A DNA stretch of 27,754 bases from a virus (taxonomy: Duplodnaviria; Caudoviricetes). A program made the translations under genes and the position numbers. Shown in pieces: positions 4,771 to 22,462 of the stretch (the stretch's first letter is position 1; every line of letters begins with the position of its first letter). The DNA lies in IMG/VR virus record IMGVR_UViG_3300020168_000026, positions 1-27,754 of that record; one strand, given 5' to 3'. The notes below the pieces were generated by a model. The model saw only the letters and a list, made by a program, of their open reading frames with translations, searched no databases and was not told the DNA's origin.

Positions 4771-4882
4771 TCGTGGTGCGTCTCGCCTTTTTCGGAAAAA
4801 GCGCGCTATCCGCTTGTGCTGGGATGAGGCTTGTCCTATAAATAATCCAACGGGGGGCAACGAAGCCCCAAGGAGAGAGACC
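4771..4882 (+). promoter_or_regulatory. promoter cassette P1
   Basis: CTCGCCTTT box; TTGTGC 4814 - 17 bp - TATAAA 4837; hairpin GGGGC-AACGAA-GCCCC; SD AGGAGAGAGA. Confidence 0.85.
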
Positions 4883-5095
4883 ATGACCAACGCCGACATC
4901 GCGACCCGAGACCTCATCGCCGCCATCCGCACCGCCGTTGCCGCGCCCAAGGGATGCGCCTTCAACTCGGTGAGCCGCTACATGGCCGAGGCGGACTACC
5001 TCCTCGCCAACACCGACCTCAACACGGACGCCGCGCGCCGTCGCGCCGGGAGCATCCGCCGCGCCGTGGAGACCAACGTCGCTCTCTACGCCTAA
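4883..5095 (+). CDS. small cassette protein (70 aa)
   Basis: ATG directly after the P1 SD. Confidence 0.8.
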   Translation: MTNADIATRDLIAAIRTAVAAPKGCAFNSVSRYMAEADYLLANTDLNTDAARRRAGSIRRAVETNVALYA

Positions 5096-5105
5096 CCACT
5101 CCAGC

Positions 5106-5132
5106 GCCCCGCCCGGGGCCTCGTACCGGGCA
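5106..5132 (+). ncRNA. 27-nt pseudoknot-like intergenic motif, copy a
   Basis: GCCCC GCCCGG GGC CTCGTA CCGGGC A. Confidence 0.6.
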
Positions 5133-5142
5133 AGGAGGAGAC

Positions 5143-5307
5143 ATGGACACCGCCACCGCTCGCGGAATCTTCCGCACCTACATCACCGAGGCCGCGTTCT
5201 ACGCCCGGTCCCTGCGCTCCCAGCGCAACCCCTCCACCCGCCTGTGGCTCGCCACGCGGGTCCACAAGTACCGGACCCTGGCCCGAGAGGCCGCGCGGGA
5301 CCTGTAG
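5143..5307 (+). CDS. small basic cassette protein (54 aa)
   Basis: SD AAGGAGGAG; MDTATARGIFRTYITEAAFYARSL... Confidence 0.75.
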   Translation: MDTATARGIFRTYITEAAFYARSLRSQRNPSTRLWLATRVHKYRTLAREAARDL

Positions 5308-5320
5308 GAGGGGCGGCTGA

Positions 5321-5433
5321 CCGCTACACGGCTCGCCTTTTTCAAAAATAGTTCGATATGCGCTTGCGCTGAGAATCACCCGGGCCTATAAATAGTCCAA
5401 CGGGGGGCAACGAAGCCCTAGAGGAGAGAGACC
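5321..5433 (+). promoter_or_regulatory. promoter cassette P2
   Basis: CCGCTACACGGCTCGCCTTT box; TTGCGC 5364 - 17 bp - TATAAA 5387; hairpin; SD GAGGAGAGAGA. Confidence 0.85.
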
Positions 5434-5736
5434 ATGTACCCCAGCTTGACCGGATACGACGCCTGGAAGACCGCGACCCCGCCCGAGGGCGCGTGCGAGC
5501 ACTGCGACCACGTCTACTGTCCCGAGGTGTGCGAGGTGTGCGGCGAGTGCCTCCACGCTGGAGACTGGACGGAGGTCCAGGGGCACGAGGTTTGCGCCTC
5601 GTGCGTCGAGGGCGGGTGCCCGACCCAGGACTACCAGCCGTGCGAGGTGTGCGGCGAGTGGGCCACCCTCAAGATCGGCTCCGTGACGATCTGCACCATG
5701 CCCGAGTGCGACACCCACAAGCGGCGGGAGGCTTGA
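5434..5736 (+). CDS. Cys-rich multi-zinc-finger protein (100 aa)
   Basis: Repeated CxxC (CEHC, CEVC twice, CASC); cassette SD. Confidence 0.8.
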   Translation: MYPSLTGYDAWKTATPPEGACEHCDHVYCPEVCEVCGECLHAGDWTEVQGHEVCASCVEGGCPTQDYQPCEVCGEWATLKIGSVTICTMPECDTHKRREA

Positions 5737-5738
5737 CC

Positions 5739-5924
5739 ATGAGCAACGAAAACCATCACCCACGCTGCGCCACCCTGATCGACAGCGTGCTCCGCTGCAC
5801 CTGCGCCCAGGAGGACGCCTGGGACGACAAGATGGCGGAGGAGGAGGAGATCCTTAGCTGGGTGCCCTGCGACTGCCATCGGGGGTGCGAGCGATGCGGC
5901 GGCGAAGGGTACGTCTACGAATGA
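5739..5924 (+). CDS. small Cys-rich protein (61 aa)
   Basis: ATG 5739 after GGGAGG; ends with CERCGGEG, a DnaJ-type zinc knuckle. Confidence 0.7.
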   Translation: MSNENHHPRCATLIDSVLRCTCAQEDAWDDKMAEEEEILSWVPCDCHRGCERCGGEGYVYE

Positions 5925-6295
5925 GCCGGGCGATCTTGACCAACCTGCGCCCCTTCGGGGGCTCCTTCCGAGCCACGGCCACCCTCCTCCCCGGAGGACG
6001 CCACGAGGTGGCCCTGGAGGCCCGAGCGGGGCGCGTGTTCCTGGCGAAACCATACCCCGAAGGGCTCGGGGGCTCGGGCTTGTACGACCTCTCCACGGCC
6101 CTCCACCGTCTCAGGCTGGACCCCTCGGACACGCGGCCCCGGTACGTCTGGGCTTGCGGACACGAAGAGCCGGACCGGTGGTCCGTGGTGGTGGACCTGG
6201 GGCGGAAGTGCCCCGGGTGCATGGCCGAGGACAAGACCCGAGAGGCGGGCGGACGGGATCTGTTCGGGGAGGGCGTGCGAGCCCTGCACGATTAG
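5921..6295 (+). CDS. hypothetical protein (124 aa)
   Basis: ATGA overlap with the upstream gene; CGH...CPGC zinc-ribbon-like pair. Confidence 0.7.
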   Translation: MSRAILTNLRPFGGSFRATATLLPGGRHEVALEARAGRVFLAKPYPEGLGGSGLYDLSTALHRLRLDPSDTRPRYVWACGHEEPDRWSVVVDLGRKCPGCMAEDKTREAGGRDLFGEGVRALHD

Positions 6296-6388: not shown

Positions 6389-6496
6389 TCCCGGATATTT
6401 TCTTCTCTTTTTCTCTCTTTTCCACTTGCGCCGTGATGGGCGGGTCTAGTACAAATAGTCCAACGGCGGGACACAACGTCCCAGAGGAGAGAGACC
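6389..6496 (+). promoter_or_regulatory. promoter cassette P3
   Basis: T-tracts; TTGCGC 6426 - 18 bp - TACAAA 6450; hairpin GGGAC-ACAAC-GTCCC; SD GAGGAGAGAGA. Confidence 0.8.
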
Positions 6497-6745
6497 ATGA
6501 CCCACGAAGCCCGATACTCCATCCGCGGAACCAACGGACACAACGCTGACGATCTGACGCTTTACGAAGCGGCCAAGGCTCTGATCGCAGCGCGGAAGGA
6601 TGAGGCCCTGACCGACGCGAGCCACATCCGCCGCGGTGGCCGCCCGGTGGCTTTCTTCTGCGAGTGGCTGAACGTGGTACGCCCGATGTACAAGGCCCTC
6701 ACGGAGGAGGCCGAGGTCATCGCGGTGTGGGAGATGGGGAGCTAG
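6497..6745 (+). CDS. small cassette protein (82 aa)
   Basis: ATG after the P3 SD. Confidence 0.8.
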   Translation: MTHEARYSIRGTNGHNADDLTLYEAAKALIAARKDEALTDASHIRRGGRPVAFFCEWLNVVRPMYKALTEEAEVIAVWEMGS

Positions 6746-6767: not shown

Positions 6768-7067
6768 TCACTTCGAGCCTCGGCACCCCTCGCGGACGGC
6801 CTCTCGGACCGTCTCCCGGAGCGGGACGCCGTGCTCTCGGGACCGCTGGATCAGCCTCTCAAGGTCGCGCGGATCTGCCAGGACGCCGAAGGCGACCTCC
6901 CGGATCAGGGTCTGCTCGGAGCACCGGGAGCCGGATCTCATGGCGGGGACACGGAGGCCCCTCTCACGGAGGAACGCCAGCGCGTCCGCGATCATGGCGT
7001 TCTCGTCGTCGGTCTGGCCCCGCTCCTGATCCGCCCCGTATAGCGTGAGTCTGATGTCTCGCTTCAT
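6768..7067 (-). CDS. hypothetical protein, possible regulator, probably leaderless (99 aa)
   Basis: Minus-strand TTGACC-17-TACATT ends 6 nt before ATG 7067; no SD. Confidence 0.6.
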   Translation of the reverse strand: MKRDIRLTLYGADQERGQTDDENAMIADALAFLRERGLRVPAMRSGSRCSEQTLIREVAFGVLADPRDLERLIQRSREHGVPLRETVREAVREGCRGSK

Positions 7068-7073
7068 GCGACA

Positions 7074-7124
7074 AATGTACAGCCCAACCCTTGACCGGTC
7101 AATGTGTGTCCCTGTACTGTACAC
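7074..7124. promoter_or_regulatory. back-to-back promoters sharing the palindrome TTGACCGGTCAA
   Basis: Palindrome at 7091-7102 gives a -35 on both strands; -10 TACATT (minus, 7079-7074) and TACTGT (plus, 7115-7120). Confidence 0.7.
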
Positions 7125-7151
7125 CCCGACCCGTGGAGGACCGAGACCCTG

Positions 7152-7687: not shown

Positions 7688-7983
7688 GGCACGAAGCGAG
7701 GATCACCGTCTGCTCGGTCATGCGGGACCTGAGCATGGACGCGGGGAGCGACACCGGGAAGCGTGTCGCGTGGTCGGCGGGCTCCCGGGTGCGGGATATG
7801 TGGGAGGCGGAGCACGACCGACGCCCCGAGATGCGTCTGGTCCAGAAGACCAGCGGCAGCGGGACGCATGACAAGGCCGTCTATCCCGAGTCATGGCGGG
7901 GGCGGATCGAGGAGGCGATCTACACCGCCGAGGTGGAGGTAGGCGCGGTGCCTGATCCGCGTCAAGTGGGCTTGTTCGGGTGA
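7684..7983 (+). CDS. hypothetical protein with C-terminal QVGLF
   Basis: Overlapping start/stop codons at both ends; SD GGAGGAG. Confidence 0.75.
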   Translation: MRHEARITVCSVMRDLSMDAGSDTGKRVAWSAGSRVRDMWEAEHDRRPEMRLVQKTSGSGTHDKAVYPESWRGRIEEAIYTAEVEVGAVPDPRQVGLFG

Positions 7984-9125
7984 TGCTCCAGGCACACCAC
8001 GGCGATGGGCTCGCGATCTACCCGACGCTCCCCTCCGACGCCTACACGCTGATCGTCTCGGACGGCGCTTATGGGATCGGCGGGTTCCCAGGGGATCCGA
8101 AGTCCCCGAAGGGTCTGGCGGAGTGGTACCGGCCACACCTCGAAGCGTGGGACCGTCTAGCGGCCCCGTCGTCGTCGCTCTACTTCTGGTGTACCCCCGA
8201 GGGGTGCGCGCGGATGCTGCCGGTGGTTGAGGAGTACGGGTGGCGGTTCTACTCGTCGGTTCGGTGGCACAAGGGCATGGCGGCGCTTGCCGGTCGGCTT
8301 GACTCTGAGGCAATCCGAGGTTGGCCGGTATCGTCGGAAGACTGCTACTTCTTCGTCCGCGAAGCCGTGGATATCAGCGCGCTCGCGGCGCAAGGGGTCG
8401 CGCCAGGGCATGACGGACTCGCGCACAAGTCACTAATCGAAGCGGCGGGGGCGGACGAGCGGAACACGGTGAGGACGTTCCTCCGCGCGGAGTGGATGGA
8501 GCGCGCGGGGTTGACCATCGGAGACGCGACGGATCGCGCCTATCGTTCGTCGGCCTCGCACTACTTCACACGCTCCCAGTGGGCGTTCCCGACGTGGGAG
8601 GGGTTCTCAGCCCTTGCCGCCTACGCCCGCGAGCACGGACCACCGACCGAGCGCCCCTACCTCGTGACCGAGGACGTGTGGGCACGACGCGGCGGGCTCC
8701 GGGAGTCGTACGAGGCTCTCCGGGAGTCGTACGAGGCTCTCCGGGAGGAGTACGAGGCTCTCCGGGAGGAGTACGAGGCTCTCCGGGAGGAGTACGAGGC
8801 TCTCCGCTACCCCTTCACCCTCCCGCAAGGTGTAACTGACGTGTGGAGCGCGCCACCTGTTAGCGCCAAGCGGCGGCACTCATGCGCGAAGCGACCCGAG
8901 CACATCGAGCGGATCGTGAAGGCGAGCAGCCGCCCGGGGGATCGCGTTCTAGAGCCATTCGGCGGCGGGGCTCCGGTCTTGCGGGCGTGTCAGAAGTTGG
9001 GCCGGTCTTGCGATTCGATCGAGCGGGTGGAGGAGTGGCACCGCTGGGCTCTGGCGATCTTGGGAGATCACGGCGCGGTGGCCGAGCCTGGGATCCTCCC
9101 GGGCCAAGGGAGCCTGTTCGGATGA
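7980..9125 (+). CDS. N6A/N4C DNA methyltransferase (beta class) with inserted domain and heptad repeat
   Basis: Motif IV variant LIVSDGAY; C-terminal HSCAKRP..IERIVKASSRPGDRVLEPFGG. Confidence 0.85.
   Translation: MMLQAHHGDGLAIYPTLPSDAYTLIVSDGAYGIGGFPGDPKSPKGLAEWYRPHLEAWDRLAAPSSSLYFWCTPEGCARMLPVVEEYGWRFYSSVRWHKGMAALAGRLDSEAIRGWPVSSEDCYFFVREAVDISALAAQGVAPGHDGLAHKSLIEAAGADERNTVRTFLRAEWMERAGLTIGDATDRAYRSSASHYFTRSQWAFPTWEGFSALAAYAREHGPPTERPYLVTEDVWARRGGLRESYEALRESYEALREEYEALREEYEALREEYEALRYPFTLPQGVTDVWSAPPVSAKRRHSCAKRPEHIERIVKASSRPGDRVLEPFGGGAPVLRACQKLGRSCDSIERVEEWHRWALAILGDHGAVAEPGILPGQGSLFG
8697..8806 (+). repeat. 21-bp coding tandem repeat, 5.2 copies (LRE[S/E]YEA heptad)
   Basis: CTCCGGGAG(TCG/GAG)TACGAGGCT at 8697, 8718, 8739, 8760 and 8781. 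Confidence 0.95.
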
Positions 9126-9841: not shown

Positions 9842-10366
9842 ATGGCAGGGAAGCCAGCGGAAGAGACAGTCACGCGGAGGCATAAGGTCCTCGCTCAGTA
9901 CCTCTCACCGGGAGGGCTCGGGAAGCACAACTCCGCCGAGGTGGCGCGGGCTCTCAGGGTCTCCGAGCGGACCCTATGGCATGACCTCAAGGTGGTGCGG
10001 GAGCAATGGGCCAAGAGCGGCGCTCCTGTCCACCCGGACGCGGCCACAGTCCACGCCAGGATCGGCGCGGCCCTGGATGTGGCGTGGGGGCTTGTCAGGG
10101 AGGGAGAAGACGCGGAGACGGCTCTGAAGGCCCTGGATCGGGTCTACAAGGGGATCGACCTCCAGGCGCGCGTCTCGGGCGTCTACGCCCCGGAGAAGGT
10201 GGAGCACACCGTAGGAGAGACGGCGGGGATCAACCTGACGCCGGAGGATCTGGCGTGGTTCGCGCACTGGCGGGAGCGGTGGGAGGAGCTATGCGAGAGG
10301 CGGGAGGCGGGGACGCTCACGGAGATGGAGCGCCACGCCCTGGACGTGTTCGAGGCGGGGTTGTGA
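9842..10366 (+). CDS. probable terminase small subunit (HTH)
   Basis: N-terminal HTH SAEVARALRVSERTLWHDL; C-terminal ARVSGVYAPEKVEHT typical of TerS. Confidence 0.65.
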   Translation: MAGKPAEETVTRRHKVLAQYLSPGGLGKHNSAEVARALRVSERTLWHDLKVVREQWAKSGAPVHPDAATVHARIGAALDVAWGLVREGEDAETALKALDRVYKGIDLQARVSGVYAPEKVEHTVGETAGINLTPEDLAWFAHWRERWEELCERREAGTLTEMERHALDVFEAGL

Positions 10367-11610
10367 GCGAGAGGTGTCCTCTCTTCGTCGAGCTATGCGC
10401 GGGGCTCGCGTCCGTCTCGCTCATGCTCCAGGGCGGCAAGTACGCGCGCCCGCCTGTCTCGCGGATGGGCAATAAGCACGGCTATGGGCTCGCGCTGCTC
10501 CGCGTCATGGGCCTGCGACCGGGGCAGGGTGCCGAGCGGTACTTGTGGGCAGAGCCCGACCCGGGATGCCGCGCCCTGCTCCACGCCTACACCGACCGCG
10601 AGTTGATGCAGGAGGCGGCGCGCATCATCCGGTCGTGGAAGGACGAGGAGCCGCGCGCGCTGTGGGAGCGGCTGCGGGCCGAGGGTCCGATACGGGTAGG
10701 GGAGGCGCGGGAGGTGGCGCGGCATTCAGCACTGGCGCAGTGGTCATACCGGAGGTGTGAGCCGGATAGCGGGTGGTGTTCGGTGCATGTGCCGCAAGGC
10801 GAGGAGGCCATCATTGAGGGCGGCAGGAAGCCGGCGCGGAACATTGCGACTGATTACGCAGCCGCCCCCACCCTCCCCGCCACCGTCACCCCCGACGCGC
10901 GAGCGGTAGACCCGAGGGAGGTGGCGCGCTTTAACCTTGTCGCTGCTTGGTGCGCGCAAGGCGACGTCAACGCGCCGGGCTATCGCGGCCCCGGTGGGAA
11001 CCTAGGCGACTTCGGCGGGCCGTTGCTTTGTGCGTCGTCAATGCCAAACCGCATGGAGTCGCCGCCGACCCTCCCCGCCACCGTCACGCCCGACGCGCGA
11101 GCGGTAGACCCGCGGGAGGTGGCGCGGTGGTCCCTGGGGGAAGCGTGGACGAACTCTGGGCGATACATGGGGCCTGACCGCCCCTCCTCGTGCCATGCAG
11201 AGGGATGGGTTGCAAGCATTGAGAGGGCTGGACTTGCGAGGAGGTTTGACGCCGCCCCAGAAGTTCCCGCCACCCAAGCCCCCGACGCGCGAGCCATCGA
11301 GCCCGCCGACCTCCCGCCCGGGACGGTCGTATTCATCGACCCTCCCTACGTCGGCACGACCGGCTATGGGAACGACCTCCCGCGCGAGGACGTGGTGGAG
11401 ATGGCGCGGAGGTGGTCCGAGGCGGGGGCGCGCGTCTACATCAGCGAGGCCGAGCCCATCGGGGCGCTCGTGGCCGAGGGCTGGCAAGCCGTGGAGATCA
11501 CGAGTCAGCGGGTGGGGCAGAGGAGGACGTTCAGCAAGCAACAGCGCGAGTGGGTCACGTGCTCGGAGGATCCAGCCTGGAGGCCACCGGTACAGGTCGG
11601 CCTTTTCTGA
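10363..11610 (+). CDS. Dam/D12-like (alpha class) DNA adenine methyltransferase with tandem variable modules (415 aa)
   Basis: GTG 10363 overlaps the upstream stop; motif I FVELCAG, PPVSRMGNK, YLWAEPD, motif IV VFIDPPY, VYISE. Confidence 0.8.
   Translation: MSERCPLFVELCAGLASVSLMLQGGKYARPPVSRMGNKHGYGLALLRVMGLRPGQGAERYLWAEPDPGCRALLHAYTDRELMQEAARIIRSWKDEEPRALWERLRAEGPIRVGEAREVARHSALAQWSYRRCEPDSGWCSVHVPQGEEAIIEGGRKPARNIATDYAAAPTLPATVTPDARAVDPREVARFNLVAAWCAQGDVNAPGYRGPGGNLGDFGGPLLCASSMPNRMESPPTLPATVTPDARAVDPREVARWSLGEAWTNSGRYMGPDRPSSCHAEGWVASIERAGLARRFDAAPEVPATQAPDARAIEPADLPPGTVVFIDPPYVGTTGYGNDLPREDVVEMARRWSEAGARVYISEAEPIGALVAEGWQAVEITSQRVGQRRTFSKQQREWVTCSEDPAWRPPVQVGLF
10870..11126 (+). repeat. 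59-bp direct repeat pair within the MTase (10870-10928, 11068-11126)
   Basis: 57/59 identical, encodes TLPATVTPDARAVDPREVAR; partial copies at 10708-10722 and 11266-11304. Confidence 0.95.
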
Positions 11611-12040: not shown

Positions 12041-12154
12041 ACGCTCGACGCCTCGCCTTTTTCGCTTTTCTTTCGTTTTCCGCTTGCGCCCGAATGTGGG
12101 GTAGTTCTATAACTAACTCATCGGCGGGACACACCGCCACGGAGGAGAGAGAAC
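12041..12154 (+). promoter_or_regulatory. promoter cassette P4
   Basis: ACGCTCGACGCCTCGCCTTT box; TTGCGC 12084 - 18 bp - TATAAC 12108; hairpin GGCGG-GACACA-CCGCC; SD GGAGGAGAGAGA. Confidence 0.85.
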
Positions 12155-12466
12155 ATGACCAACCCCGCCGCCAACGACATCGCGATCAGCGCCAACGAGT
12201 TCCGCACCATCTTCGTGAACGTGCTCAACGACTCCACCACCCTGGGGGATCTTCTCGCGGACTCCGCGACCTTCCGCCGCCAGCGCGGGTTCCACAACAA
12301 GGCGACCGGCGAGTATGTGGCCGCTAAGGACTTCACCCTCCGCGGGATCCGCAAGGGCGGCGCGGGTCACGTCGCGGCCTACCTCGGAATGACCGGGACC
12401 GACATCACCGGACGCCGTGTCTGGCTTCTCGACGGAGCCACGGTTACGGACCTCGGGATTGCCTAG
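12155..12466 (+). CDS. small cassette protein (103 aa)
   Basis: ATG after the P4 SD. Confidence 0.8.
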   Translation: MTNPAANDIAISANEFRTIFVNVLNDSTTLGDLLADSATFRRQRGFHNKATGEYVAAKDFTLRGIRKGGAGHVAAYLGMTGTDITGRRVWLLDGATVTDLGIA

Positions 12467-12477
12467 AGCCACCACGA

Positions 12478-12504
12478 GCCCACCCCGGGGCCTAGTACCG
12501 GGGA
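12478..12504 (+). ncRNA. 27-nt pseudoknot-like motif, copy b
   Basis: GCCCA CCCCGG GGC CTAGTA CCGGGG A. Confidence 0.6.
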
Positions 12505-12517
12505 CGGAGGAGAGACC

Positions 12518-12758: not shown

Positions 12759-12783
12759 AAGCCCCGCCCCGAGCGGGGTTTTT
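12759..12783 (+). terminator. intrinsic terminator
   Basis: AAGCCCCGC-CCCGA-GCGGGGTTTTT. Confidence 0.8.
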
Positions 12784-12785
12784 GC

Positions 12786-12882
12786 TTTTTCTGCTCCTTT
12801 TCTCGCTTTTCCGCTTGCGAGTGCATTCGGCCCGGTCTATAAATAATCCAACAGCGGGGACGAGCCCCGGAGGAGAGAGACG
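12786..12882 (+). promoter_or_regulatory. promoter cassette P5
   Basis: TTGCGA 12815 - 17 bp - TATAAA 12838; hairpin CGGGG-ACGAG-CCCCG; SD GGAGGAGAGAGA. Confidence 0.85.
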
Positions 12883-13110
12883 ATGACCACCACCCGCGCC
12901 AACATCTCCACCGTCTCCTTCGCCACCCGCCCCGAGGCCGTGGAGTGGCTCGCGGTCAATGACTTCCGCCGCTTGCCTGTCAAGGGCTCGGAGCGTTGGT
13001 CCGCCACCGAGTGGAGCGACGACGGGCGGAAGGGCGTGACGTTCGCATCCGCAGCGGGTCGCGACGAGATCGGGAACGTTATCGCCTTCGACCTCGTCAC
13101 CTACTACTAG
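12883..13110 (+). CDS. small cassette protein (75 aa)
   Basis: ATG after the P5 SD. Confidence 0.8.
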   Translation: MTTTRANISTVSFATRPEAVEWLAVNDFRRLPVKGSERWSATEWSDDGRKGVTFASAAGRDEIGNVIAFDLVTYY

Positions 13111-13117
13111 CCAGAAC

Positions 13118-13144
13118 GCCCCGCCCGTGGCCTTGTACCGGGCA
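13118..13144 (+). ncRNA. 27-nt pseudoknot-like motif, copy c
   Basis: GCCCC GCCCGT GGC CTTGTA CCGGGC A (one stem mismatch). Confidence 0.55.
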
Positions 13145-13157
13145 GGAGGAGAGAGAG

Positions 13158-13424: not shown

Positions 13425-13445
13425 GCGCGACCCCAGACACCCATA

Positions 13446-13472
13446 GCCCCGCCCGGGGCCTTGTACCGGGCA
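13446..13472 (+). ncRNA. 27-nt pseudoknot-like motif, copy d
   Basis: GCCCC GCCCGG GGC CTTGTA CCGGGC A. Confidence 0.6.
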
Positions 13473-13482
13473 GGAGGAGACG

Positions 13483-15530: not shown

Positions 15531-15643
15531 CCGCTGTACGTCTCGCCTTTTCCGTCTTTTTTCGCTTTTCCGCTTGCGCCCGTGTGGGTGGTCATCTATA
15601 ACTAACTCATCGACGGGGACGAACCCCGCGGAGGAGAGAGACC
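15531..15643 (+). promoter_or_regulatory. promoter cassette P6
   Basis: CCGCTGTACGTCTCGCCTTT box; TTGCGC 15574 - 17 bp - TATAAC 15597; hairpin CGGGG-ACGAA-CCCCG; SD. Confidence 0.85.
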
Positions 15644-15928
15644 ATGAACATCGCCCGCACCATCCAGACCCAACTCGGCGGCGCTCTCGTGATGATGGGA
15701 GCCTTCAACCTGATCGACCACGGGGACGCCCTGTCCTTCAAGTTCCGCGGGAGCCGAAAGGCCAACTACCTCAAGATCACCCTGGCCGGTGATGACACCT
15801 ACACGATGGACTTCCTCAAGCTGGGCCGGAACTTCTCGATCAAGGAGGTGGCGTCCTTCTCCGGTGTCTACGCCTCGAACGTCAAGAGCGTGATCGAGTC
15901 CACCACGGGCCTCTACACGAGCCTCTAG
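15644..15928 (+). CDS. conserved phage protein of unknown function (94 aa)
   Basis: Pattern IARTIQTQLGG..MMGA...DDTYTMDF...GVY...TGLYTSL, recalled as widespread in phages; cassette SD. Confidence 0.85.
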   Translation: MNIARTIQTQLGGALVMMGAFNLIDHGDALSFKFRGSRKANYLKITLAGDDTYTMDFLKLGRNFSIKEVASFSGVYASNVKSVIESTTGLYTSL

Positions 15929-15949: not shown

Positions 15950-15974
15950 AAGCCCCGCCCAGGCGGGGTTTTTT
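15950..15974 (+). terminator. intrinsic terminator
   Basis: AAGCCCCGC-CCAG-GCGGGGTTTTTT. Confidence 0.8.
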
Positions 15975-15984: not shown

Positions 15985-16099
15985 ACGCTGGACGCCTCGC
16001 CTTTCCGATATTTCTTCGCTTTTCCGCTTGCGCTCGATATCGCCCGCGTCTATAAATAGAGCATCGACGGGGCAACGACGCCCCAGGAGGAGAGAGACC
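15985..16099 (+). promoter_or_regulatory. promoter cassette P7
   Basis: ACGCTGGACGCCTCGCCTTT box; TTGCGC 16028 - 17 bp - TATAAA 16051; hairpin GGGGC-AACGAC-GCCCC; SD. Confidence 0.85.
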
Positions 16100-16327
16100 A
16101 TGACCGCACTTGACGCCGACCTCGCCCGCTTCGCCGCCTCTGACCTTCGCCTCGCCCGCAAGCAAGGGGACGCCCTCATCGGCCAGACCCGCCTCGGGAC
16201 GCTCTCGCTCCGCTACGACGCGGGCCACTACTCCCTGACCACCACGGGGATCGCGCCCACGGTGATCGCGGAGGGCAAGGCCGCGACGGTCAAAGCCGCG
16301 CTGGCCGACTGCTACCTGATCGACTAG
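16100..16327 (+). CDS. small cassette protein (75 aa)
   Basis: ATG 16100 after the P7 SD. Confidence 0.8.
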   Translation: MTALDADLARFAASDLRLARKQGDALIGQTRLGTLSLRYDAGHYSLTTTGIAPTVIAEGKAATVKAALADCYLID

Positions 16328-16336
16328 CAACCCAGA

Positions 16337-16363
16337 GCCCGCCCGGGGGCCTTGTACCCGGGA
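16337..16363 (+). ncRNA. 27-nt pseudoknot-like motif, copy e
   Basis: GCCCG CCCGGG GGC CTTGTA CCCGGG A. Confidence 0.6.
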
Positions 16364-16376
16364 GGAGGAGAGAGAG

Positions 16377-16544: not shown

Positions 16545-16554
16545 GGAGGGAGCC

Positions 16555-16752: not shown

Positions 16753-16767
16753 AGAGGAGACGGAGAG

Positions 16768-16794
16768 GCCCTGGGGAAATCCTCGGGGCTTTTT
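16768..16794 (+). terminator. probable intrinsic terminator
   Basis: GCCCTGGGG-AAAT-CCTCGGGGC-TTTTT (two G-U pairs). Confidence 0.65.
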
Positions 16795-16889
16795 CTTTCG
16801 CTTTTTTTCGCTTTTCCGCTTGCGCCCAATATCGAGGGGGTCTATAAATAATCCAACGGGGGCACGGAGCACCCGGGAGGAGAGAGAAC
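16795..16889 (+). promoter_or_regulatory. promoter cassette P8
   Basis: TTGCGC 16820 - 17 bp - TATAAA 16843; hairpin with ACGGA loop; SD GGAGGAGAGAGA. Confidence 0.85.
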
Positions 16890-17147
16890 ATGACCACGAA
16901 CGCCGCCAACTACGCCGACCTCAACAACTGGTTCTCGATTCGCCGCGGCGATGGTCTCGATGTCCTGCGGTCCAAGGACAGCAAGTGCGAGATCCGTAGC
17001 TATCGTGACGAGGTCTCCGGCGAGCGGGTGTATGACCTGTACTACCAGCGGCCCGGATCGCTCGGTGCGATGGCTTTCGGTGACACCTACCAGAGCAGCC
17101 AGACGGCGGCGGAGGCCGCGCCCGGACTCTTCGAGGTGTCGCGCTAA
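16890..17147 (+). CDS. small cassette protein (85 aa)
   Basis: ATG after the P8 SD. Confidence 0.8.
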   Translation: MTTNAANYADLNNWFSIRRGDGLDVLRSKDSKCEIRSYRDEVSGERVYDLYYQRPGSLGAMAFGDTYQSSQTAAEAAPGLFEVSR

Positions 17148-17159
17148 GTCAACCCACGA

Positions 17160-17186
17160 GCCCCGCCCCGGGCCTAGTACGGGGCA
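17160..17186 (+). ncRNA. 27-nt pseudoknot-like motif, copy f
   Basis: GCCCC GCCCCG GGC CTAGTA CGGGGC A; not followed by an SD. Confidence 0.6.
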
Positions 17187-17189
17187 CCC

Positions 17190-20100
17190 TTGACGGTTGC
17201 GCGATCTTATGCCCGCGCGTACTTTGCTCGCGTGGAAGACAACGGCTCACTCACTTGGACCCTGGCGGTTGACGCGGCGACGGTGGAACGCGCCAAGGCC
17301 ACGGGTCAGCCCCAGATCACCGTCCCGCGCGAGATCACCGCCCTGGCGACTCAGGCCCCAAGCGGGCTCCCTCGGAAGGACTACGCGCCCCCGAGCGTCT
17401 ACGTCTCCGGGGGTGAGGTCCAGCTAGAGCACAACGACCGGCTCGATCAGGATCAGTGGTTCGGGTTCGACGGGTACATCGGCTTCCGGGACAAGATGGT
17501 CCGCGAGTGGCCGATCCTCCAGGCGGGGAAACTGGCCTGGAGCCTCTCCACGCTCTCGCGCCAGTGGCGGATCGATCCCCCGAAGGGCGGCGATTCCCGC
17601 GACCTGATGATCGCGGAGTTCGCCCGCACGGTGATCGATGACCACTACGCGGGCGGCGGCGGCGGGATGATGGGCCTCCTGAGCCAGTTCGCCACGCTCC
17701 CGACGGATGGCTTCGTCCTGGGCCAGCCATACTATCCGGTCGATCCCACGATCACGGTCCGCGATGACTCCGGGGCCGTGGTCCTACAGGGCGCACACAC
17801 GCTCCAGATCGCTCCGATCCCCGCGTGGAACGTCCAGTATTGGCTCCCCGAGCCGGGGCCGCACAATCGGACCGTGTGGGGCGTGGAGGTGTACAACGTC
17901 GGAGGGGACGAGGAGATCGCCAAGGCGACCCGCGCCCGCAACTACGACAACGTGCGATTTAGGGCGGATCAGCTAGTCCACGCGCGCTTTATGCCCCAGG
18001 GGAACGACCCCGCGCCCTATGGCCTCCTCCGGCCCAACTGGAGCCTCTGGGAACAGTGGCGCACCCTGAGCAAGCTCCAGATCAACGGGTGGCAGAAGGC
18101 GGCATTCGGGATCCCACAGATCGAGACGACGGCGGAGGCGAACCCCGGCGATATCGCCACGGTGAATCAGATCGTCTCCAACCTCCGCGCGGGGGCTCTG
18201 GCGAGGTACTCCCTCCCGCCCGGGTTCCGGGTCACCTACCGGGAGGTGCCGTTCAGAGCGGGCGACCTCGACAAGACCAAGCAGCAACTCAAGATGGACG
18301 CCCTCGCCGGGATGTTCGCTCAGCATGTGGCGACCGGCTCCGCCAACGGGACCCAGGCCCTCCACGGGAGCCAGAAGCAGGAGTTCCACGCCCTGGCCGA
18401 GTATGTGGCGCGGACCATCGTCTCCACCCTGACGCGCGGCCCCGTCTCCACGGCCCCCTTGAAGCGTCTGGTCTCGCTCAATTTCCGGGACGTGGAATCC
18501 TATCCGGTCCTGTCCTTCGGCCCCATGCCGGTCTCGGACCCGTCCGAGTTCGTGGCCGCGATCACGAAGGCATCCGACGCGGGCGCGTTGACTCTGGACG
18601 GCGGGATCGAGGCCACGATCCGCGATGCGCTGAACCTGCCTGAGATGCCGATGGAGACCTCGGCCCAGTGGAAGGCGCGACTCCAGAACGAGGCCCCGCC
18701 GAACATCACGCCGACCCAGGCGGACACGGGCGAGGAGGACGAGCCAGACGGACCGGACGAGCCCCCGGAAGGTCCGCCCGATGGGGACGGCGGCGGAGTC
18801 ACTGACTCGGGCGGCGAGGAGGCCGACGAGGCGGAGGATCAGTCCGAGGTCCGAGCGGCGGCGGAAGACCCCGCGAAGACTCCCGCCCTCCCTGAGGAGC
18901 GGGTCCGCGGCTCGAAGAAGAACCCCGAGGGATCCGCCAGTGGAAAGCGAGGCGGGATCGAGGTCTCGCCCGCGGTGGAGGAGGCCCTACGCGCCAAGGT
19001 CGAGGACCACAACGATGGCCGCACCTCGAAGGCTCGACGGGTGGACCTGGGCGCTCTGAAGGCTGTGTATCGACGCGGGGCGGGTGCCTTCTCCGTCTCC
19101 CACCGTCCAGGGATGACCCGGAACCAGTGGGCAATGGGGCGCGTCAACGGGTTCCTCCGCCGCGTGGCTGGCACCGGAGGCCACCCCCAGGACGATGATC
19201 TGCTCCCAGAGGGCCACCCGAACAAGCCACAGGCCGCGGCGGATCTGCTCCCCGAGTCCCGCGTGATGGGGGATCGGATCGTGGCCGGTCCCGGTGGTCG
19301 CGCGGTCCGTCCGATCGAGACGGTGATCCGCCTCTCGGAGACCCTCGCGGTCACGAACGCCGGGAAGGACGAGGTGACGAAGGTCCTCGTGGACTGGCGG
19401 ATGGAGACCGCGAAGGAGTACGGGGACAGGCTGGAGAAGGACGCCGAGACCCTCGGGGACGTGGCGGACATCCCGGTCCCGAACGAGCGCGAGCTAGAGC
19501 GGAACCTGATCACCGCCCTCCGCCGTGTGTACCGCTCGGGGCGGCTCTCCGTCGAGAGCGAGATGGATCGCCTGGAGGATGACCCGTCCTTGGCGGCGGA
19601 CCTCGCAACCGGTGAGGCCAAGGTGGGCTCCCCGGGGATTCCAGCGCCGGAGAGGACCCTGGTGGCCTCCGCGGAGTCAGACACACACATTCCCCCGGAA
19701 TCGGTGCGAAAGGCCGCGAGAGACGCTCTCAGCGCCCGCAAGGACGCACACCCAAGCGAGCGAGGGATGACCGCGGTGGGTCTGGCCCGTGCTCGGGACC
19801 TCGCGAACGGACGCCCGGTCACGATCGCCACGATGCGTCGGATGAGGTCCTACTTCGCCCGCCATGAGGTGGACAAAGAGGGCGCGACTTGGGACGAGAA
19901 GGGCAAGGGCTGGCAAGCGTGGCAGGGCTGGGGCGGCGACCCTGGCCGCGAGTGGGTGGAGCGGATCTTGGAGCGCGAGGACGCCCGCGCGATGGCTGAG
20001 CACGCCGCTTGCCCCGCGGCGACTCAGAGCGTCCAGATCAACACCCGGAACCGGGACGCGACGGTCCGCCAGTTCGGCTATGGGCCGCTCAATGTGGACC

Positions 20101-21014
20101 GCCCTGGGGACTTCTGGGAGGAGATCGCGGAGGCGTGGGACACGTCCGAGGAGGCGGCGCGGGAGAGCCTCTGCGGGAACTGTGTCGCCTTCGATGTGTC
20201 CCCCAGGATGGAGGCATGTATGCCGGGGCCGGTGTCCGACGAGGACGGGCGGCTCGGGTACTGCCACATGCACCACTTCAAATGCCACAGCGCGCGGACG
20301 TGCCGAACGTGGGCGAAGGGCGGACCCATCACCGAGGACGAGGTCTCCCTGGAGTGGCAGGAGCGGTCCTCGGGGGCTGTGGCGTCCTCTGATCACGTCC
20401 ACGGCCCCGGCTGTGGGTGCGGGTCTTCCGGGGCGCTCCTCGACTCTCGGAGGCTCGTGGAGCGGATCCGCGCGATGGCGGATCAGCCCAAGGCCGGAGG
20501 GAGGCGGAAGGTCCGCGCGCCGAAGCCCGCCCCGGCCCAGCCTGAGAGCGAGGTGGACGAGATCGAGCCGAACGAGGCGATCGAGTCCGTGGCGCGGACG
20601 ACCGTGGCGGCGATGGTCGCGCGGCTCCGCAACCGAGCCCAGAGCGTCCTCCAGAACGCCGGGATCGGCGGGGCTCTGCCCACCCTCGGGATCGGGGCTC
20701 TGGTGACGAGCGCGATCCGCGCCCTCTCTCCCGGCACGGAGGCCAATCAAGCGCAAGCGGATGTGAATACCACCTTCGGCCTGGGGCGAGCCCAGCAACA
20801 ACGGGCCGAGGGCGCGGACCGGTTCATCTTCAGCAACCTCTTGGAGAGCCAGACCTGCCAGTTCTGCGATCAGTTCGACGGGACCGTTTTCGGCCCCGAT
20901 GAACTGGACTTCTTCGCCACGCCCTTCCAGCTATGCGAGGGCGGGGACAAGTGCAACTGTCTGATCCTCGCGGTCCCGCCCGAGCAGGAAGAGTTCCGGC
21001 CCGACCTCGGGTGA
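17190..21014 (+). CDS. portal protein (Mu gp29/DUF935-like) fused to a MuF/SPP1 gp7-like head morphogenesis domain with inserted domains; start may be GTG 17232
   Basis: Portal motifs PYGLLRP..W, KAAFGIP, GTQAL, LKRLVSLNF, IRDALNLP; C-terminal TCQFCDQFDG...PFQLCEGGDKCNC typical of MuF; located after terL. Confidence 0.85.
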   Translation: MTVARSYARAYFARVEDNGSLTWTLAVDAATVERAKATGQPQITVPREITALATQAPSGLPRKDYAPPSVYVSGGEVQLEHNDRLDQDQWFGFDGYIGFRDKMVREWPILQAGKLAWSLSTLSRQWRIDPPKGGDSRDLMIAEFARTVIDDHYAGGGGGMMGLLSQFATLPTDGFVLGQPYYPVDPTITVRDDSGAVVLQGAHTLQIAPIPAWNVQYWLPEPGPHNRTVWGVEVYNVGGDEEIAKATRARNYDNVRFRADQLVHARFMPQGNDPAPYGLLRPNWSLWEQWRTLSKLQINGWQKAAFGIPQIETTAEANPGDIATVNQIVSNLRAGALARYSLPPGFRVTYREVPFRAGDLDKTKQQLKMDALAGMFAQHVATGSANGTQALHGSQKQEFHALAEYVARTIVSTLTRGPVSTAPLKRLVSLNFRDVESYPVLSFGPMPVSDPSEFVAAITKASDAGALTLDGGIEATIRDALNLPEMPMETSAQWKARLQNEAPPNITPTQADTGEEDEPDGPDEPPEGPPDGDGGGVTDSGGEEADEAEDQSEVRAAAEDPAKTPALPEERVRGSKKNPEGSASGKRGGIEVSPAVEEALRAKVEDHNDGRTSKARRVDLGALKAVYRRGAGAFSVSHRPGMTRNQWAMGRVNGFLRRVAGTGGHPQDDDLLPEGHPNKPQAAADLLPESRVMGDRIVAGPGGRAVRPIETVIRLSETLAVTNAGKDEVTKVLVDWRMETAKEYGDRLEKDAETLGDVADIPVPNERELERNLITALRRVYRSGRLSVESEMDRLEDDPSLAADLATGEAKVGSPGIPAPERTLVASAESDTHIPPESVRKAARDALSARKDAHPSERGMTAVGLARARDLANGRPVTIATMRRMRSYFARHEVDKEGATWDEKGKGWQAWQGWGGDPGREWVERILEREDARAMAEHAACPAATQSVQINTRNRDATVRQFGYGPLNVDRPGDFWEEIAEAWDTSEEAARESLCGNCVAFDVSPRMEACMPGPVSDEDGRLGYCHMHHFKCHSARTCRTWAKGGPITEDEVSLEWQERSSGAVASSDHVHGPGCGCGSSGALLDSRRLVERIRAMADQPKAGGRRKVRAPKPAPAQPESEVDEIEPNEAIESVARTTVAAMVARLRNRAQSVLQNAGIGGALPTLGIGALVTSAIRALSPGTEANQAQADVNTTFGLGRAQQQRAEGADRFIFSNLLESQTCQFCDQFDGTVFGPDELDFFATPFQLCEGGDKCNCLILAVPPEQEEFRPDLG

Positions 21015-21029
21015 TCTGGGGGGTCTTGA

Positions 21030-21470
21030 GTGTTCACGTCCCACCGCTTTCCGCGGCCCTTCTGGTACCCCACGATCTCCTTCTTCCAGTCCCCGGTGAC
21101 GAAGGACGTGGCCCTAGCTCCGACTCCAGGGACCCTGACGGCGACGGCGGCGGCTGAGTATGGGCGGGTAGGCACCTCGGAGGCGCGGCACATCGCCTAC
21201 GCCCACCTCCACCACGAGGTGGACGGCTCCTCGGGCTCCACCACTATGGAGATGTACCGGAGGCGGGGCGCGGTGGTGACTCTGATCGCGAACGTGACCT
21301 TGGCCGCGGGCTCGGGGGACTTCACGACCGTGGCGTGGACCTTCACCTCCCCCGCGGTCCAGTACCTCCAGGCGGGGGATTACCTCCACGTCCAGGCCAC
21401 GAGCAAGATGGGCGGGAGCCCCGTGGCGTTCATCGACGTGCATTGGGACGCCTTTGAGGGGCTCGGATAG
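21030..21470 (+). CDS. putative beta-rich virion protein (146 aa)
   Basis: Thr/Ala/Gly-rich with LQAGDYLHVQ; follows the portal gene. Confidence 0.6.
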   Translation: MFTSHRFPRPFWYPTISFFQSPVTKDVALAPTPGTLTATAAAEYGRVGTSEARHIAYAHLHHEVDGSSGSTTMEMYRRRGAVVTLIANVTLAAGSGDFTTVAWTFTSPAVQYLQAGDYLHVQATSKMGGSPVAFIDVHWDAFEGLG

Positions 21471-21652
21471 TGGCGCGACCCCCACGGACCACACTCCCAG
21501 ACGGGATCGGCAAGGAGGCGGATCGGGTGGTCGCACTCCGCGAGGGATTGACCGCGGACGCGGTGCGGAAGATGCGCCAGAAAGCGCAGATCCCCTCGGC
21601 CCACGGATGGGGAGGGGATCGGCGCTCGAAGGACTGGCGGGAGAAGGGCTAG
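21470..21652 (+). CDS. small basic DNA-binding-like protein (60 aa)
   Basis: DRVVALREGLTADAVRKMRQKAQIP is HTH-like; GGDRRSK tail; start overlaps the upstream stop. Confidence 0.55.
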   Translation: MARPPRTTLPDGIGKEADRVVALREGLTADAVRKMRQKAQIPSAHGWGGDRRSKDWREKG

Positions 21653-21831
21653 ACGTACCGGCGACCGTGCGAGTCTCGAATGGAGACGGACTCGACGTGA
21701 AGGTTCATGAACTTGAACCCGGACTTCCGATGCCAAGCCACATAGGCGGCGCTCTCCTCGGCCTCTGATTCTGACGGGTACTCCCCCACGAGCACCCAAG
21801 ACCTTCCGGTAAAGAACTCGACACAGAACAT
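21649..21831 (-). CDS. small cassette protein (60 aa)
   Basis: ATG 21831 after the P9 SD; MFCVEFFTGRSWVLVGEYPSESEAEE... Confidence 0.75.
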   Translation of the reverse strand: MFCVEFFTGRSWVLVGEYPSESEAEESAAYVAWHRKSGFKFMNLHVESVSIRDSHGRRYV

Positions 21832-21931
21832 CACTCTCTCCTCCCGCGGCGCTTCGTGCCCCGCTAGTGAGTTAGTTATAGAAACCAGCCAGACCGGACG
21901 CAAGCGGAAAACGGAAGAAAGTTGGAAAAAG
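21832..21931 (-). promoter_or_regulatory. promoter cassette P9
   Basis: Minus strand TTGCGT (21903-21898) - 17 bp - TATAAC (21880-21875); hairpin with ACGAA loop; SD GGAGGAGAGAG. Confidence 0.85.
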
Positions 21932-21944
21932 AGCCCCAAGCACG

Positions 21945-21967
21945 AAACCCCGCACGGGGCGGGGCTT
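21945..21967 (-). terminator. terminator-family hairpin
   Basis: Minus strand AAGCCCCGC-CCCGT-GCGGGGTTT; same family as 12759 and 15950, with a short U-tract. Confidence 0.6.
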
Positions 21968-21986
21968 GTGTGCGGCCCGTGTGGGC

Positions 21987-22349
21987 TCAATCGACGTAGG
22001 ATAGCTGAGCGTCGCAAGCCCGTTTCCAAACCGCCGCCCGGTAAGCCGCGCGCTCGTCCCAATCGCCCCAATCGTCCTCTCCCGCAGCCTCGCAAGCCGC
22101 CTCCCAATCGTCCTCTCCCGCAGCCTTGCGAGCCGCCGCCAGTTCGCCGTCCAGCCAAGCCTCGGCGGCATCGCAGAGCGCCATCGCGGCCTCAACGTCA
22201 CCGCCGCGGGCTGCGGCCTTAACCTCATCCTCGACTCCCCACAAGGCGGCGCGGTTGAACTCGGCGGCGCTAGCGGCGAAACCGGCCTCGATAGCCTCGC
22301 CCTGGAGGTTGCGGTAGAGGCGGCGGAAGATGGTCAGGTCGTTGTTCAT
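21987..22349 (-). CDS. acidic Ala-rich cassette protein (120 aa) with internal 12-aa duplication
   Basis: ATG after P10; about 26 D/E versus 12 K/R; AAGEDDW twice (36-bp period, 22067-22137). Confidence 0.8.
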   Translation of the reverse strand: MNNDLTIFRRLYRNLQGEAIEAGFAASAAEFNRAALWGVEDEVKAAARGGDVEAAMALCDAAEAWLDGELAAARKAAGEDDWEAACEAAGEDDWGDWDERAAYRAAVWKRACDAQLSYVD

Positions 22350-22462
22350 GGTGTCTCTCCGGGCGGGTTGTTGTTGTTGTGTCCCGCTGACGATTTATTT
22401 ATAGAACGCCCCCACATTCAGCGCAAGCGGAAAAGCGAAGAAAGTTGGAAAAAGATCCGGGA
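22350..22462 (-). promoter_or_regulatory. promoter cassette P10
   Basis: Minus strand TTGCGC (22426-22421) - 17 bp - TATAAA (22403-22398); hairpin GCGGG-(ACA-rich loop)-CCCGC; SD GGAGAG. Confidence 0.85.

Follow-up and report, generated by a model that had tools for sequence, protein, structure and literature searches.

The P element and the genome that carries it

Why does a tailed phage repeat one promoter-like sequence among its packaging and head genes, each time in front of a few small genes? We studied this in a window of 27,754 nt (positions 1 to 27,754 of IMGVR_UViG_3300020168_000026; Duplodnaviria; Caudoviricetes), part of the complete genome of an uncultured phage of 44,013 bp and 67% GC. 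Judged from sequence comparison, the repeat, here called the P element, is likely (probability about 0.7) a 12-copy module that acts both as a strong sigma-70-type host promoter with translation signals and as a site where small genes are gained, lost, swapped and moved. A second, shorter repeat, R2, lies between genes inside the resulting cassettes.

Pfam and PHROGs searches showed that the phage encodes a Mu-like portal, protease and capsid as well as a tape measure protein. It also has bacterial-type DnaB, RepO and ERF genes, and genes for RusA (2e-29) and SSB (1e-16) are situated just beyond the window. The genes to which the cassettes are referred below are:

487..1140, minus strand: ERF-family single-strand annealing protein (PF04404, 1e-19)
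3469-4770: DnaB (profile match), directly before P element 1
6768-7067, minus strand: gene convergent with the cargo of element 3
13722-15530: TerL (phrog_38, 1e-50)
17190-21014: portal-fusion gene, with R2 directly upstream

Of the core genes named in an earlier, sequence-only reading of this DNA, DnaB, TerL, portal and protease stood, whilst no terS was identified with Pfam or PHROGs: the candidate at 11771-12040 has just a weak RHH/TacA-like match and that at 13483-13725 has none. Against cultured phages, megablast with 20 kb found nothing and tblastn with TerL reached 28% identity at most, so a cultured relative is not to be had. The sole match in genome collections, a contig in a MAG titled uncultured Chitinophagaceae bacterium, is the same phage (99.86% over 15.4 kb) and was therefore counted neither as evidence on the host nor as a comparator in its own right. 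Rfam returned just two matches, both at chance level and under the gathering score; a search for tRNAs yielded none.

The whole genome carries 12 full P elements and one partial copy. Ten are in the window, where the sequence-only reading had placed ten elements with this architecture; all of them were found at the -35 positions that it gave (4814, 5364, 6426, 12084, 12815, 15574, 16028, 16820, 21903 and 22426, for elements 1 to 10), scattered rather than clustered as it had described. Trained on these window copies, a profile HMM finds them again at E 8e-22 to 6e-28:

4786..4888, plus strand: P element 1 (HMM E 1e-22; -35 variant CTTGTG, N17)
5336..5438, plus strand: P element 2 (2e-24)
6395..6502, plus strand: P element 3 (6e-25; -10 variant GTACAA, N18)
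12056..12160, plus strand: P element 4 (1e-27)
12786..12888, plus strand: P element 5 (1e-25)
15546..15649, plus strand: P element 6 (2e-27), directly after TerL
16000..16105, plus strand: P element 7 (8e-26)
16790..16895, plus strand: P element 8 (6e-28)
21834..21934, minus strand: P element 9 (8e-22), with a terminator-like hairpin at about 21945-21967 before it on the minus strand
22344..22458, minus strand: P element 10 (7e-25)

The module measures about 110-150 bp, of which about 100 bp recur in near-identical form. Its parts follow a fixed order: a hairpin/T-run, a T-rich tract of about 20 nt, CTTGCG-N17/18-CTATAA, a G/C leader hairpin, GGAGGAGAGAG and ATG. The -10 block reads CTATAA(A/C)TA, and strict conservation extends outside the hexamers to the C before TTG and the TA after the -10. 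The 17-18-nt spacers vary, as the earlier reading had noted, and are unrelated between copies; so is the cargo. All 12 full copies are intergenic by gene calls, lie on the same strand as the ORF that they head and end at its start codon after an SD, 42-51 nt from the -10 block.

These signals are far from chance. TAYAAMTA has ten matches in the window, where 100 dinucleotide-preserving shuffles averaged 0.05 and never exceeded 1, and the whole 44,013-bp record gives the same ten matches with 0 and 1 for reversed-pattern controls. GGAGAGAG occurs 16 times against 3.36 expected, nine of these within the ten elements. The leader hairpin (5-bp, G/C), previously proposed for each element, folds in all ten window copies (z -1.0 to -2.8) and in 19/20 copies overall, with 17 distinct stem-loop sequences and A/C-rich loops that are alike among copies; folding energies are just modestly better than those of shuffles. 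When the leaders were aligned with MAFFT, RNAalifold returned no consensus structure, because the stems are out of register in the alignment, and per-copy folds were used in its place. A T-run and hairpin resembling a strong intrinsic terminator are predicted ahead of five of the ten window copies (12759-12781, 15950-15971, 16762-16795 and two more before the minus-strand copies), the remainder having weaker, large-loop hairpins.

Cassettes of small genes with R2 between them

By gene calls the ten window elements lead 18 small ORFs, each 54-124 aa long, one more than the 17 first claimed:

Element 1: 4883-5095 (70 aa), R2, 5143-5307 (54 aa)
Element 2: 5434-5736 (100 aa), 5739-5924 (61 aa), 5921-6295 (124 aa)
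Element 3: 6497-6745 (82 aa)
Element 4: 12155-12466 (103 aa), R2, 12518-12739 (73 aa), predicted terminator 12759-12781
Element 5: 12883-13110 (75 aa), R2, 13158-13424 (88 aa), R2, 13483-13725 (80 aa)
Element 6: 15644-15928 (94 aa; phrog_9437, unknown function), predicted terminator 15950-15971
Element 7: 16100-16327 (75 aa), R2, 16377-16544 (55 aa), 16555-16752 (65 aa), predicted terminator 16762-16795
Element 8: 16890-17147 (85 aa), R2, portal-fusion gene 17190-21014
Element 9: 21649-21834 (61 aa), minus strand
Element 10: 21987-22349 (120 aa), minus strand

None of the 18 has a Pfam match and only one has a PHROG match, of unknown function. Blastp of cargo against cargo gave no match at E<=1e-3, hence there are no paralogues among them. 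In the ESM Atlas the 94-aa protein sits in viral clusters of unknown function and the 120-aa protein gave no hint of function; Pfam/PHROGs searches of the window detected no anti-CRISPR or Aca homologue. Cargo GC (0.665) does not differ from core GC (0.672; p=0.6).

R2 is about 40 bp long and comprises a 6-bp stem, a conserved 9-nt loop GGCCU(U/C/A)GUA, then an SD and ATG. Its copies, which correspond to repeat families D5/D9, occupy six places in the window:

5096..5142, plus strand: R2
12467..12517, plus strand: R2
13111..13157, plus strand: R2
13425..13482, plus strand: R2
16328..16376, plus strand: R2
17148..17189, plus strand: R2 directly before the portal gene, the right end of a cassette indel in runs X12 and X14

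The hairpin folds in 10/10 copies; its stems vary and its loop is constant.

Relatives and natural variants differ at the repeats

We then compared the window with related viral genomes and with contigs from runs X12-X18. From the runs only bridged joints were taken as evidence, and uncovered stretches (e.g. 21969-22215) were left out. Several run joints are short-sided (24-30 nt) and could be repeats, not true junctions; those with sides below 30 nt (4801->5386, 5101->12484, 12858->16078, 15618->16079) were counted as contig ends entering another repeat copy, not as deletions.

Homology between the window and relative L018 ends at element edges in five of seven informative block ends. Relatives L017 and L018 differ by an ORF that has been replaced whilst the P element on one side and the R2 on the other are identical, and by a one-gene indel flanked by two R2 copies. 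The L017 element at about 896 is a chimera whose upstream part is L018 P1900 and whose downstream part is L018 P2295, the crossover lying in a shared T-tract/-35 segment of 22 nt. Natural variants show the same kind of change. In a lagoon variant (X14 contig) 16349-16751 is joined to 17158-17740, and the element 8 cassette is wholly absent. Runs X12 and X14 share a joint 21920->22451 (side 52) between elements 9 and 10 that deletes the element 10 cassette, and an X16 contig has an additional cassette, an insert of about 435 nt between two copies of the element after TerL.

Cargo also changes place. In the distant relative L035, homologues of the window's 94-aa (P15574) and 61-aa (P5364) genes share one cassette, which lies on the minus strand at the portal-protease junction. 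The 94-aa gene with its element is 84% identical in DNA between the two genomes, compared with mostly 67-73% for core genes (80% in one 214-nt portal stretch). Cargo at the same junctions thus differs between relatives, and cargo genes occupy different junctions in different lineages, which supports the mobility proposed earlier; the different cargo, the homology breaks at element edges and the recombinant element likewise uphold the proposed modular, PeSL-like gene shuffling. That relatives differ by whole modules at the repeats suggests that these are likely both expression signals and recombination joints.

The repeats might instead be signals and nothing else, kept as promoter, leader and SD whilst ordinary recombination, illegitimate or at gene boundaries, turns over the cargo (moron accretion); on this view the repeats just survive, so that homology merely appears to end there. 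Breakpoints at plain gene boundaries fit this explanation. Homology between the window and L018 begins exactly at the TerL start codon, outside the repeats, and in X16 the methylase gene is cleanly absent (7980->9123) at a 4-nt stop/start overlap, not a repeat. Variable junctions in L021 and L035 have few or no elements, L021 carrying seven small genes between TerL and portal without any. The L017 chimera is hard to reconcile with it, however, as each side of the shared 22 nt is at least 93% identical to one L018 element, and so is the joint 21920->22451, which was seen in two runs and falls inside two elements. Copies are moreover more alike within than between genomes, as in concerted evolution: positional orthologue elements are 0.57 and 0.63 identical, whereas the best same-genome paralogues reach 0.77 and 0.88, a likeness that could stem from lineage-specific selection instead of exchange. 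Overall, we consider it unlikely that the repeats serve as signals only.

Predicted transcription of the cassettes

The elements and R2 may also act at the RNA level. The leader and R2 hairpins could be sites for a phage protein, as in nut/boxB antitermination or a translational operator, extending cassette transcription past terminators into TerL, portal and beyond at the proper time; this would be compatible with a module that both expresses and exchanges genes. The constant 9-nt R2 loop on covarying stems in 10/10 copies points this way, as do the A/C-rich leader loops that are similar across copies. Cassettes also stand directly upstream of TerL and portal, for neither of which was another promoter-like site called. 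Against it, no N-like or Q-like protein was recognised among the phage genes, the folding z-scores are weak and nothing was found in Rfam. Such read-through control is in our estimate rather improbable.

The P12815 cassette continues into TerL and the P16820 cassette into portal, and no terminator was called in between in either case; the 13483-13725 ORF of the element 5 cassette overlaps the TerL start. One P copy beyond the window heads an endolysin-containing operon. A purely early role of the elements is weakened by both observations. In X24, the one RNA run, low-depth contigs that carry no start or end information are strewn over core and cargo genes; one piece, 12085-12300, covers a -35 region.

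A simple scan for the sigma-70 consensus (TTGACA/TATAAT) calls none of the ten elements, because TTGCGC matches TTGACA at 3/6 positions and the -10 lacks a T at -7. In sequence the P element fits a published alphaproteobacterial sigma-70 consensus, given as CTTGAC-N17-CTATAT (PMC2873474). The departure from TTGACA/TATAAT and the strict conservation outside the hexamers could also suggest a motif read by another sigma or an unrecognised phage factor, or a DNA-level replication or packaging signal. This is very improbable, as the 17-18-nt spacing with variable spacers is of the sigma-70 type, 12/12 copies are co-oriented upstream of SD-ATG, the published consensus fits, and Pfam/PHROGs searches of the 44-kb genome found no phage RNA polymerase or sigma factor. 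The same searches found no integrase or transposase, which led us to reject integron-like and transposon-like readings. An archaeal BRE sits directly upstream of the TATA box; an archaeal TATA-box reading was rejected since, the spacer being variable, no conserved block lies directly upstream of the TATA-like box here and DnaB, RepO and ERF are of bacterial type.

Proposed mechanism and its implications

For the promoter-and-exchange module that we favour, the following scheme can be proposed. The T-run would terminate the upstream transcript and double as an UP-like element, and transcription by host RNA polymerase would begin some 7-9 nt past the -10 block. Lying close to the 5' end, the hairpin would make the mRNA more stable whilst leaving the SD free. 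With its own terminator-like T-run, promoter, leader hairpin and free SD, each cassette may thus be an insulated unit that expresses its ORFan wherever it has landed. As near-identical stretches of about 100 bp (P) and about 40 bp (R2) recur genome-wide, homologous recombination between copies could delete, insert or exchange cassettes and leave the core genes intact. The ERF/RusA/SSB set of the phage would be the probable driver, and exchange could take place within one genome or between co-infecting relatives.

The interpretation in the sequence-only reading is partly supported. Its gene capture as an active process is something we infer, and early timing and a cargo role in host takeover or anti-defence are guesses from analogy.

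A bolder version is possible, though doubtful: an integrase-free cassette grammar run by ERF, in which P starts a unit, R2 links genes and ORFans hop between junctions and between lineages of about 70% DNA identity. If so, the packaging/head module would also be a rack that holds an accessory arsenal with fast turnover and its own expression, made up plausibly of anti-defence genes at the place that corresponds to the anti-CRISPR locus in Mu-like phages. Should R2-like hairpin-SD-ATG sites occur in viral contigs that are unrelated, the linker would be more widely shared; the number of such single sites about equals our own estimate of chance. Viral contigs scanned for the L018-type element variant yielded no match.

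The packaging/head module, inside which the cassettes sit, usually counts as the part of a tailed-phage genome that is most conserved and interrupted least. The repeat itself offers a practical handle by which an uncultured phage group's accessory gene pool can be found.

Comparison with known systems

Integron cassettes resemble these units in being small and single-gene, with structured repeats at their edges and a presence that varies among relatives. Here, however, there is no integrase, R2 is unlike attC and the cassettes bring their own predicted promoter.

The anti-CRISPR region of Pseudomonas Mu-like phages lies just upstream of the protease/scaffold gene, the counterpart of the site that the two minus-strand cassettes occupy here. 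Pseudomonas Mu-like phages, as described in Cazares et al. 2014 (PMC4378225), have regions of genomic plasticity that include an anti-CRISPR locus. They share with our phage Mu-like head genes and small accessory genes at fixed junctions within the morphogenesis module, but the plasticity regions are not reported as bounded by one repeated promoter module.

Lambdoid morons are described as self-contained promoter-gene-terminator units between core genes, late ones included, that are missing in relatives; they have no shared flanks in these accounts, and their composition is usually unlike that of their neighbours (PMC4378225, PMC2839356). The cassettes here likewise stand between two core genes with their own predicted promoter and terminator and are absent from relatives. 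Unlike morons, all units have one module in common and cargo GC equals core GC.

The closest parallel is with the PeSLs of T4-like myoviruses, in the accounts of Arbiol et al. 2010 (PMC2839356) and Comeau et al. 2014 (PMC4122927) an intergenic motif of about 100 bp present in many copies before ORFans and composed of a stem-loop, an A/T-rich tract, sigma-70-like -35/-10 and an SD. Close relatives differ there in that ORFans have been inserted, deleted or replaced, with crossovers within the motif giving rise to chimeric motifs; experiments demonstrated promoter strength, terminator function and mini-circles (PMC2839356; PMC4122927). The repeated composite motif, the association with ORFans and the indels and replacements with crossovers inside the motif all recur here, known in our case from sequence. 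There are also clear differences. The P element has no sequence homology to described PeSLs, and it adds a conserved leader hairpin downstream of the promoter as well as R2 within cassettes. Its cassettes sit one by one between DnaB, TerL, portal and protease, whereas those of PeSLs are grouped in hyperplastic regions. Since the phage is not T4-like (44 kb, 67% GC, Mu-like head, ERF/RusA, TerL so far from cultured phages), the P system is an analogue of PeSLs and not a homologue. In the literature searched, the term PeSL in a phage context gives just T4-like or T4-related phages. PeSL-like logic appears here independently, in a phage that is small and high in GC and has Mu-like head genes, and natural variants from several metagenomes, in which the process is seen at work, suggest that phages of quite different types have in repeat-mediated cassette exchange a general route of accessory-gene turnover.

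Genome and gene order

The window (27.7 kb, GC 67%) comes from a 44,013-bp IMG/VR viral record (G001) with 127-bp end repeats and a completeness rating of 100%. Codon-bias gene calling combined with Pfam and PHROGs gave the following order, in window orientation:

Left arm, first part: operon including a VanY-type endolysin, then small genes on the minus strand
Left arm, second part, minus strand: RusA, SSB, a Gp157-like protein and ERF
RepO-like protein, then DnaB (3469-4770), with small genes next
After these small genes: two DNA methylases and two larger genes
11771-12040: small RHH-like gene, then small genes
13722-15530: TerL (phrog_38, 1e-50), then small genes
17190-21014: portal fusion of 1274 aa (Portal_Mu)
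Between portal and protease: small genes, two on the plus and two on the minus strand
22527-23981: Mu-like protease, then scaffold/decoration protein, major capsid, connector proteins, tape measure and tail genes

Pfam and PHROGs searches of the 44-kb genome turned up no RNA polymerase, sigma factor, integrase or transposase, and neither database recognised a terS. The phage is isolated; among 8,000 candidates scored from a library of 5.8 billion proteins, only two TerL relatives exceeded 30% identity (98% and 58%). A 22.7-kb contig (L022/L023) 99.86% identical to the window phage sits in a MAG titled uncultured Chitinophagaceae bacterium. This membership is probably a binning artefact and was rejected as evidence of a host.

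Several features lie outside the cassettes. Within the RepO-like gene, five iteron-looking repeats of ~17-25 nt (AGCCCCCGGGGGTGCGGAGCCCCCC-like) occupy 2722-2847, so a replication origin may lie within this initiator gene, as it does in lambda O. The first methylase gene carries six tandem 21-nt repeats (8676-8827) under coiled-coil/leucine-zipper Pfam matches. Three ~62-nt repeats spaced ~195 nt apart (10867-11318) point to internal domain duplication in the 415-aa gene 10363-11610, which has no homologue in the related metagenome contig L018. The portal fusion combines Portal_Mu (residues 106-466), DUF5824 and PHROG-2859-like parts and a weak protease-like C-terminus, and is kept in the related contigs L021 and L035. 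The motif CTGTACA occurs six times in the window against 0.62 expected:

1405-1411 and 7076-7082, 7117-7123, 11748-11754: in three intergenic regions heading core operons, 1381-1431 and 7068-7151 (both divergent) and 11611-11770
1476-1482: just within the start of gene 1432-1791
24173-24179: within a head gene

This distribution suggests a second, operator-type control class separate from the P elements.

P elements and their cargo

The sequence-only reading had described ten dispersed promoter-like modules (P elements, named by -35 position), and site inspection and alignment found the described layout at all ten sites. The window has exactly ten TAYAAMTA matches, against 0.05 expected, and the same ten are the only ones in the whole record. 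A profile built from these copies added three more in the left arm, outside the window, two of them full and one partial. One of these two full copies forms a divergent pair with the partial copy near the genome end and stands at the head of the operon that includes the endolysin. Each of the 12 full copies lies between genes, points the same way as the ORF behind it and finishes with SD-ATG. In the window, the ten copies head 18 cargo ORFs of 54-124 aa, whose composition equals that of the core genes. No similarity was found among the 18; none matched Pfam, and one matched a PHROG, itself of unknown function.

The core of the element is C-TTGCG-N17/18-C-TATAA(A/C)TA. A strict TTGACA/TATAAT scan called none of the ten copies because the -35 agrees at three of six positions and the T at -7 is missing. 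The form agrees with the published Sinorhizobium sigma-70 consensus, CTTGAC-N17-CTATAT (PMC2873474), a sequence fit that weakly hints at an alphaproteobacterial host. In five of the ten window copies a terminator-like hairpin and T-run precede the T-rich tract; in the other five, the hairpins are weaker and lie around the stop codon that precedes. A leader G/C hairpin of 4-6 bp stands at a constant place in every window copy (z -1.0 to -2.8); with copies from other sources included, the count is 19 of 20, with 17 distinct stem-loop sequences and some compensatory pair types. The SD is unpaired in these folds. The module would be a sigma-70-type promoter with a UP-like tract; it would also act as a terminator, and its 5' hairpin would be stabilising.

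The second repeat, R2 (hairpin and SD), lies between genes within cassettes at six places, one of them directly 5' of the portal gene. In all ten copies folded, a 6-bp stem closes a 9-nt loop that stays constant, and the stems vary among copies (GCCCGG, CCCCGG, GCCCCG, GCUCCG). R2-like hairpins (CCCGGGGCCTTGTACCGGG) followed by SD and ATG were also seen once each at ~5005 in L027, L029 and L030, viral contigs of GC 52-58% without protein similarity to the window phage; by rough estimate the number of such matches is near chance level, and their context is suggestive.

Cassette differences among relatives

Four metagenome contigs were related by TerL: L017 and L018 at 91-92% identity, L020 and L021 at 58-59%. 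L018 holds seven P elements within 5.7 kb, against three in L017. None was found in L020 or L021, and in L021 seven unrelated small genes separate TerL from portal without elements. Between window and L018, TerL and the following element align at 83% until ten bases beyond the cargo ATG, after which the cargo is unrelated; the content upstream of TerL also differs. The two-gene unit 16100-16327 and 16377-16544 follows TerL in the window, and its homologues (42% and 50%) precede TerL in L017/L018. Cargo gene 12518-12739 is common to window and L018 (72%); in L018 it lies directly behind its element and in the window another gene intervenes.

L017 and L018 are ~96% identical, with three differences, all bounded by repeats. 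The first is a deletion leaving a chimeric element, its 5' part matching L018 P1900 and its 3' part P2295, with the crossover within the shared T-tract/-35 segment. In the second, the P element and the R2 are identical in both contigs and the one ORF between them has been replaced. The third is a one-gene indel flanked by two R2 copies.

Element similarity was 0.54 between the window's genome and L018, against 0.58 inside the former and 0.71 inside the latter. Positional orthologues scored 0.57 and 0.63, against 0.77 and 0.88 for the best same-genome paralogue. Elements are more alike within than between genomes, the sequence pattern of concerted evolution.

The distant relative L035 (G002; 13.7 kb) shares 75% identity in capsid and 58-74% in portal. 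Its TerL-like gene runs directly into portal, and its portal-protease junction holds a single, minus-strand P element. The cassette there reads P element, homologue of the window's 94-aa gene (88.5% aa identity), R2, an unknown gene and a homologue of the 61-aa gene, whose window counterpart belongs to the P5364 cassette. DNA identity with the window is 84% over the 94-aa gene and its element; core genes mostly align at only 67-73%, with one 214-nt portal stretch at 80%. Between TerL-like stop codon and portal start, L035 also has a bare CTTGCG-N16-CTATAC (1065-1100) without T-tract, hairpin or SD, possibly a minimal P element or a relic of one.

Variants in sequencing runs

All runs were examined as contigs. 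In X14, a run with the label lagoon metagenome, 16349-16751 runs straight into 17158-17740 on a single 1000-nt contig; the whole P16820 cassette is thus missing, the right end lying within R2. X12 and X14 share a joint between both minus-strand elements (21920->22451, 52 nt matched beside the joint) and another removing both minus-strand cassettes (21646->22473, 30 nt). Seawater run X18 gave joints 21921->22463 (26 nt) and 16033->16841 (41 nt). In X16, a 1314-nt contig carries an extra ~435 nt between two copies of the element after TerL, and another exchanges the 808-bp minus-strand region for 505 nt of different sequence. The first methylase gene (7980-9125) is precisely absent from X16, the joint (7980->9123, long sides) falling at a plain 4-nt stop/start overlap without a repeat; thus not every indel arises via repeats. 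X16, labelled as a single organism ('organism A'), holds a ~90-95% identical phage relative at depths 5-100 with different cassette content, and the labelled organism could be its host or a co-culture source.

Interpretation and known systems

The phage carries repeats of fixed grammar associated with unrelated ORFans. Cassette differences among its natural relatives mostly end within these repeats, and one element is recombinant. The sequence-only observation holds up and its interpretation does so in part: the last two points support its modular, PeSL-like side. "Immediate-early" as an exclusive label is doubtful, since the lysis operon has a copy at its head and two cassettes continue into TerL and portal. 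Exchange between repeats would probably be driven by the phage ERF/RusA/SSB set, and the cargo may act early, in host takeover or anti-defence.

Like the window cassettes, morons and the plasticity regions of Mu-like Pseudomonas phages are inserted between core genes, but they do not share the common repeat (PMC4378225). The nearest known system is the PeSL (promoter-early stem-loop) cassettes of T4-like phages (PMC2839356, PMC4122927). In titles and abstract openings, a literature search found "PeSL" in phage context for T4-like or T4-related phages only. The window system works alike but is non-homologous and in another phage type; its cassettes are dispersed through the packaging/head module, and the leader hairpin and R2 linker are features of its own.
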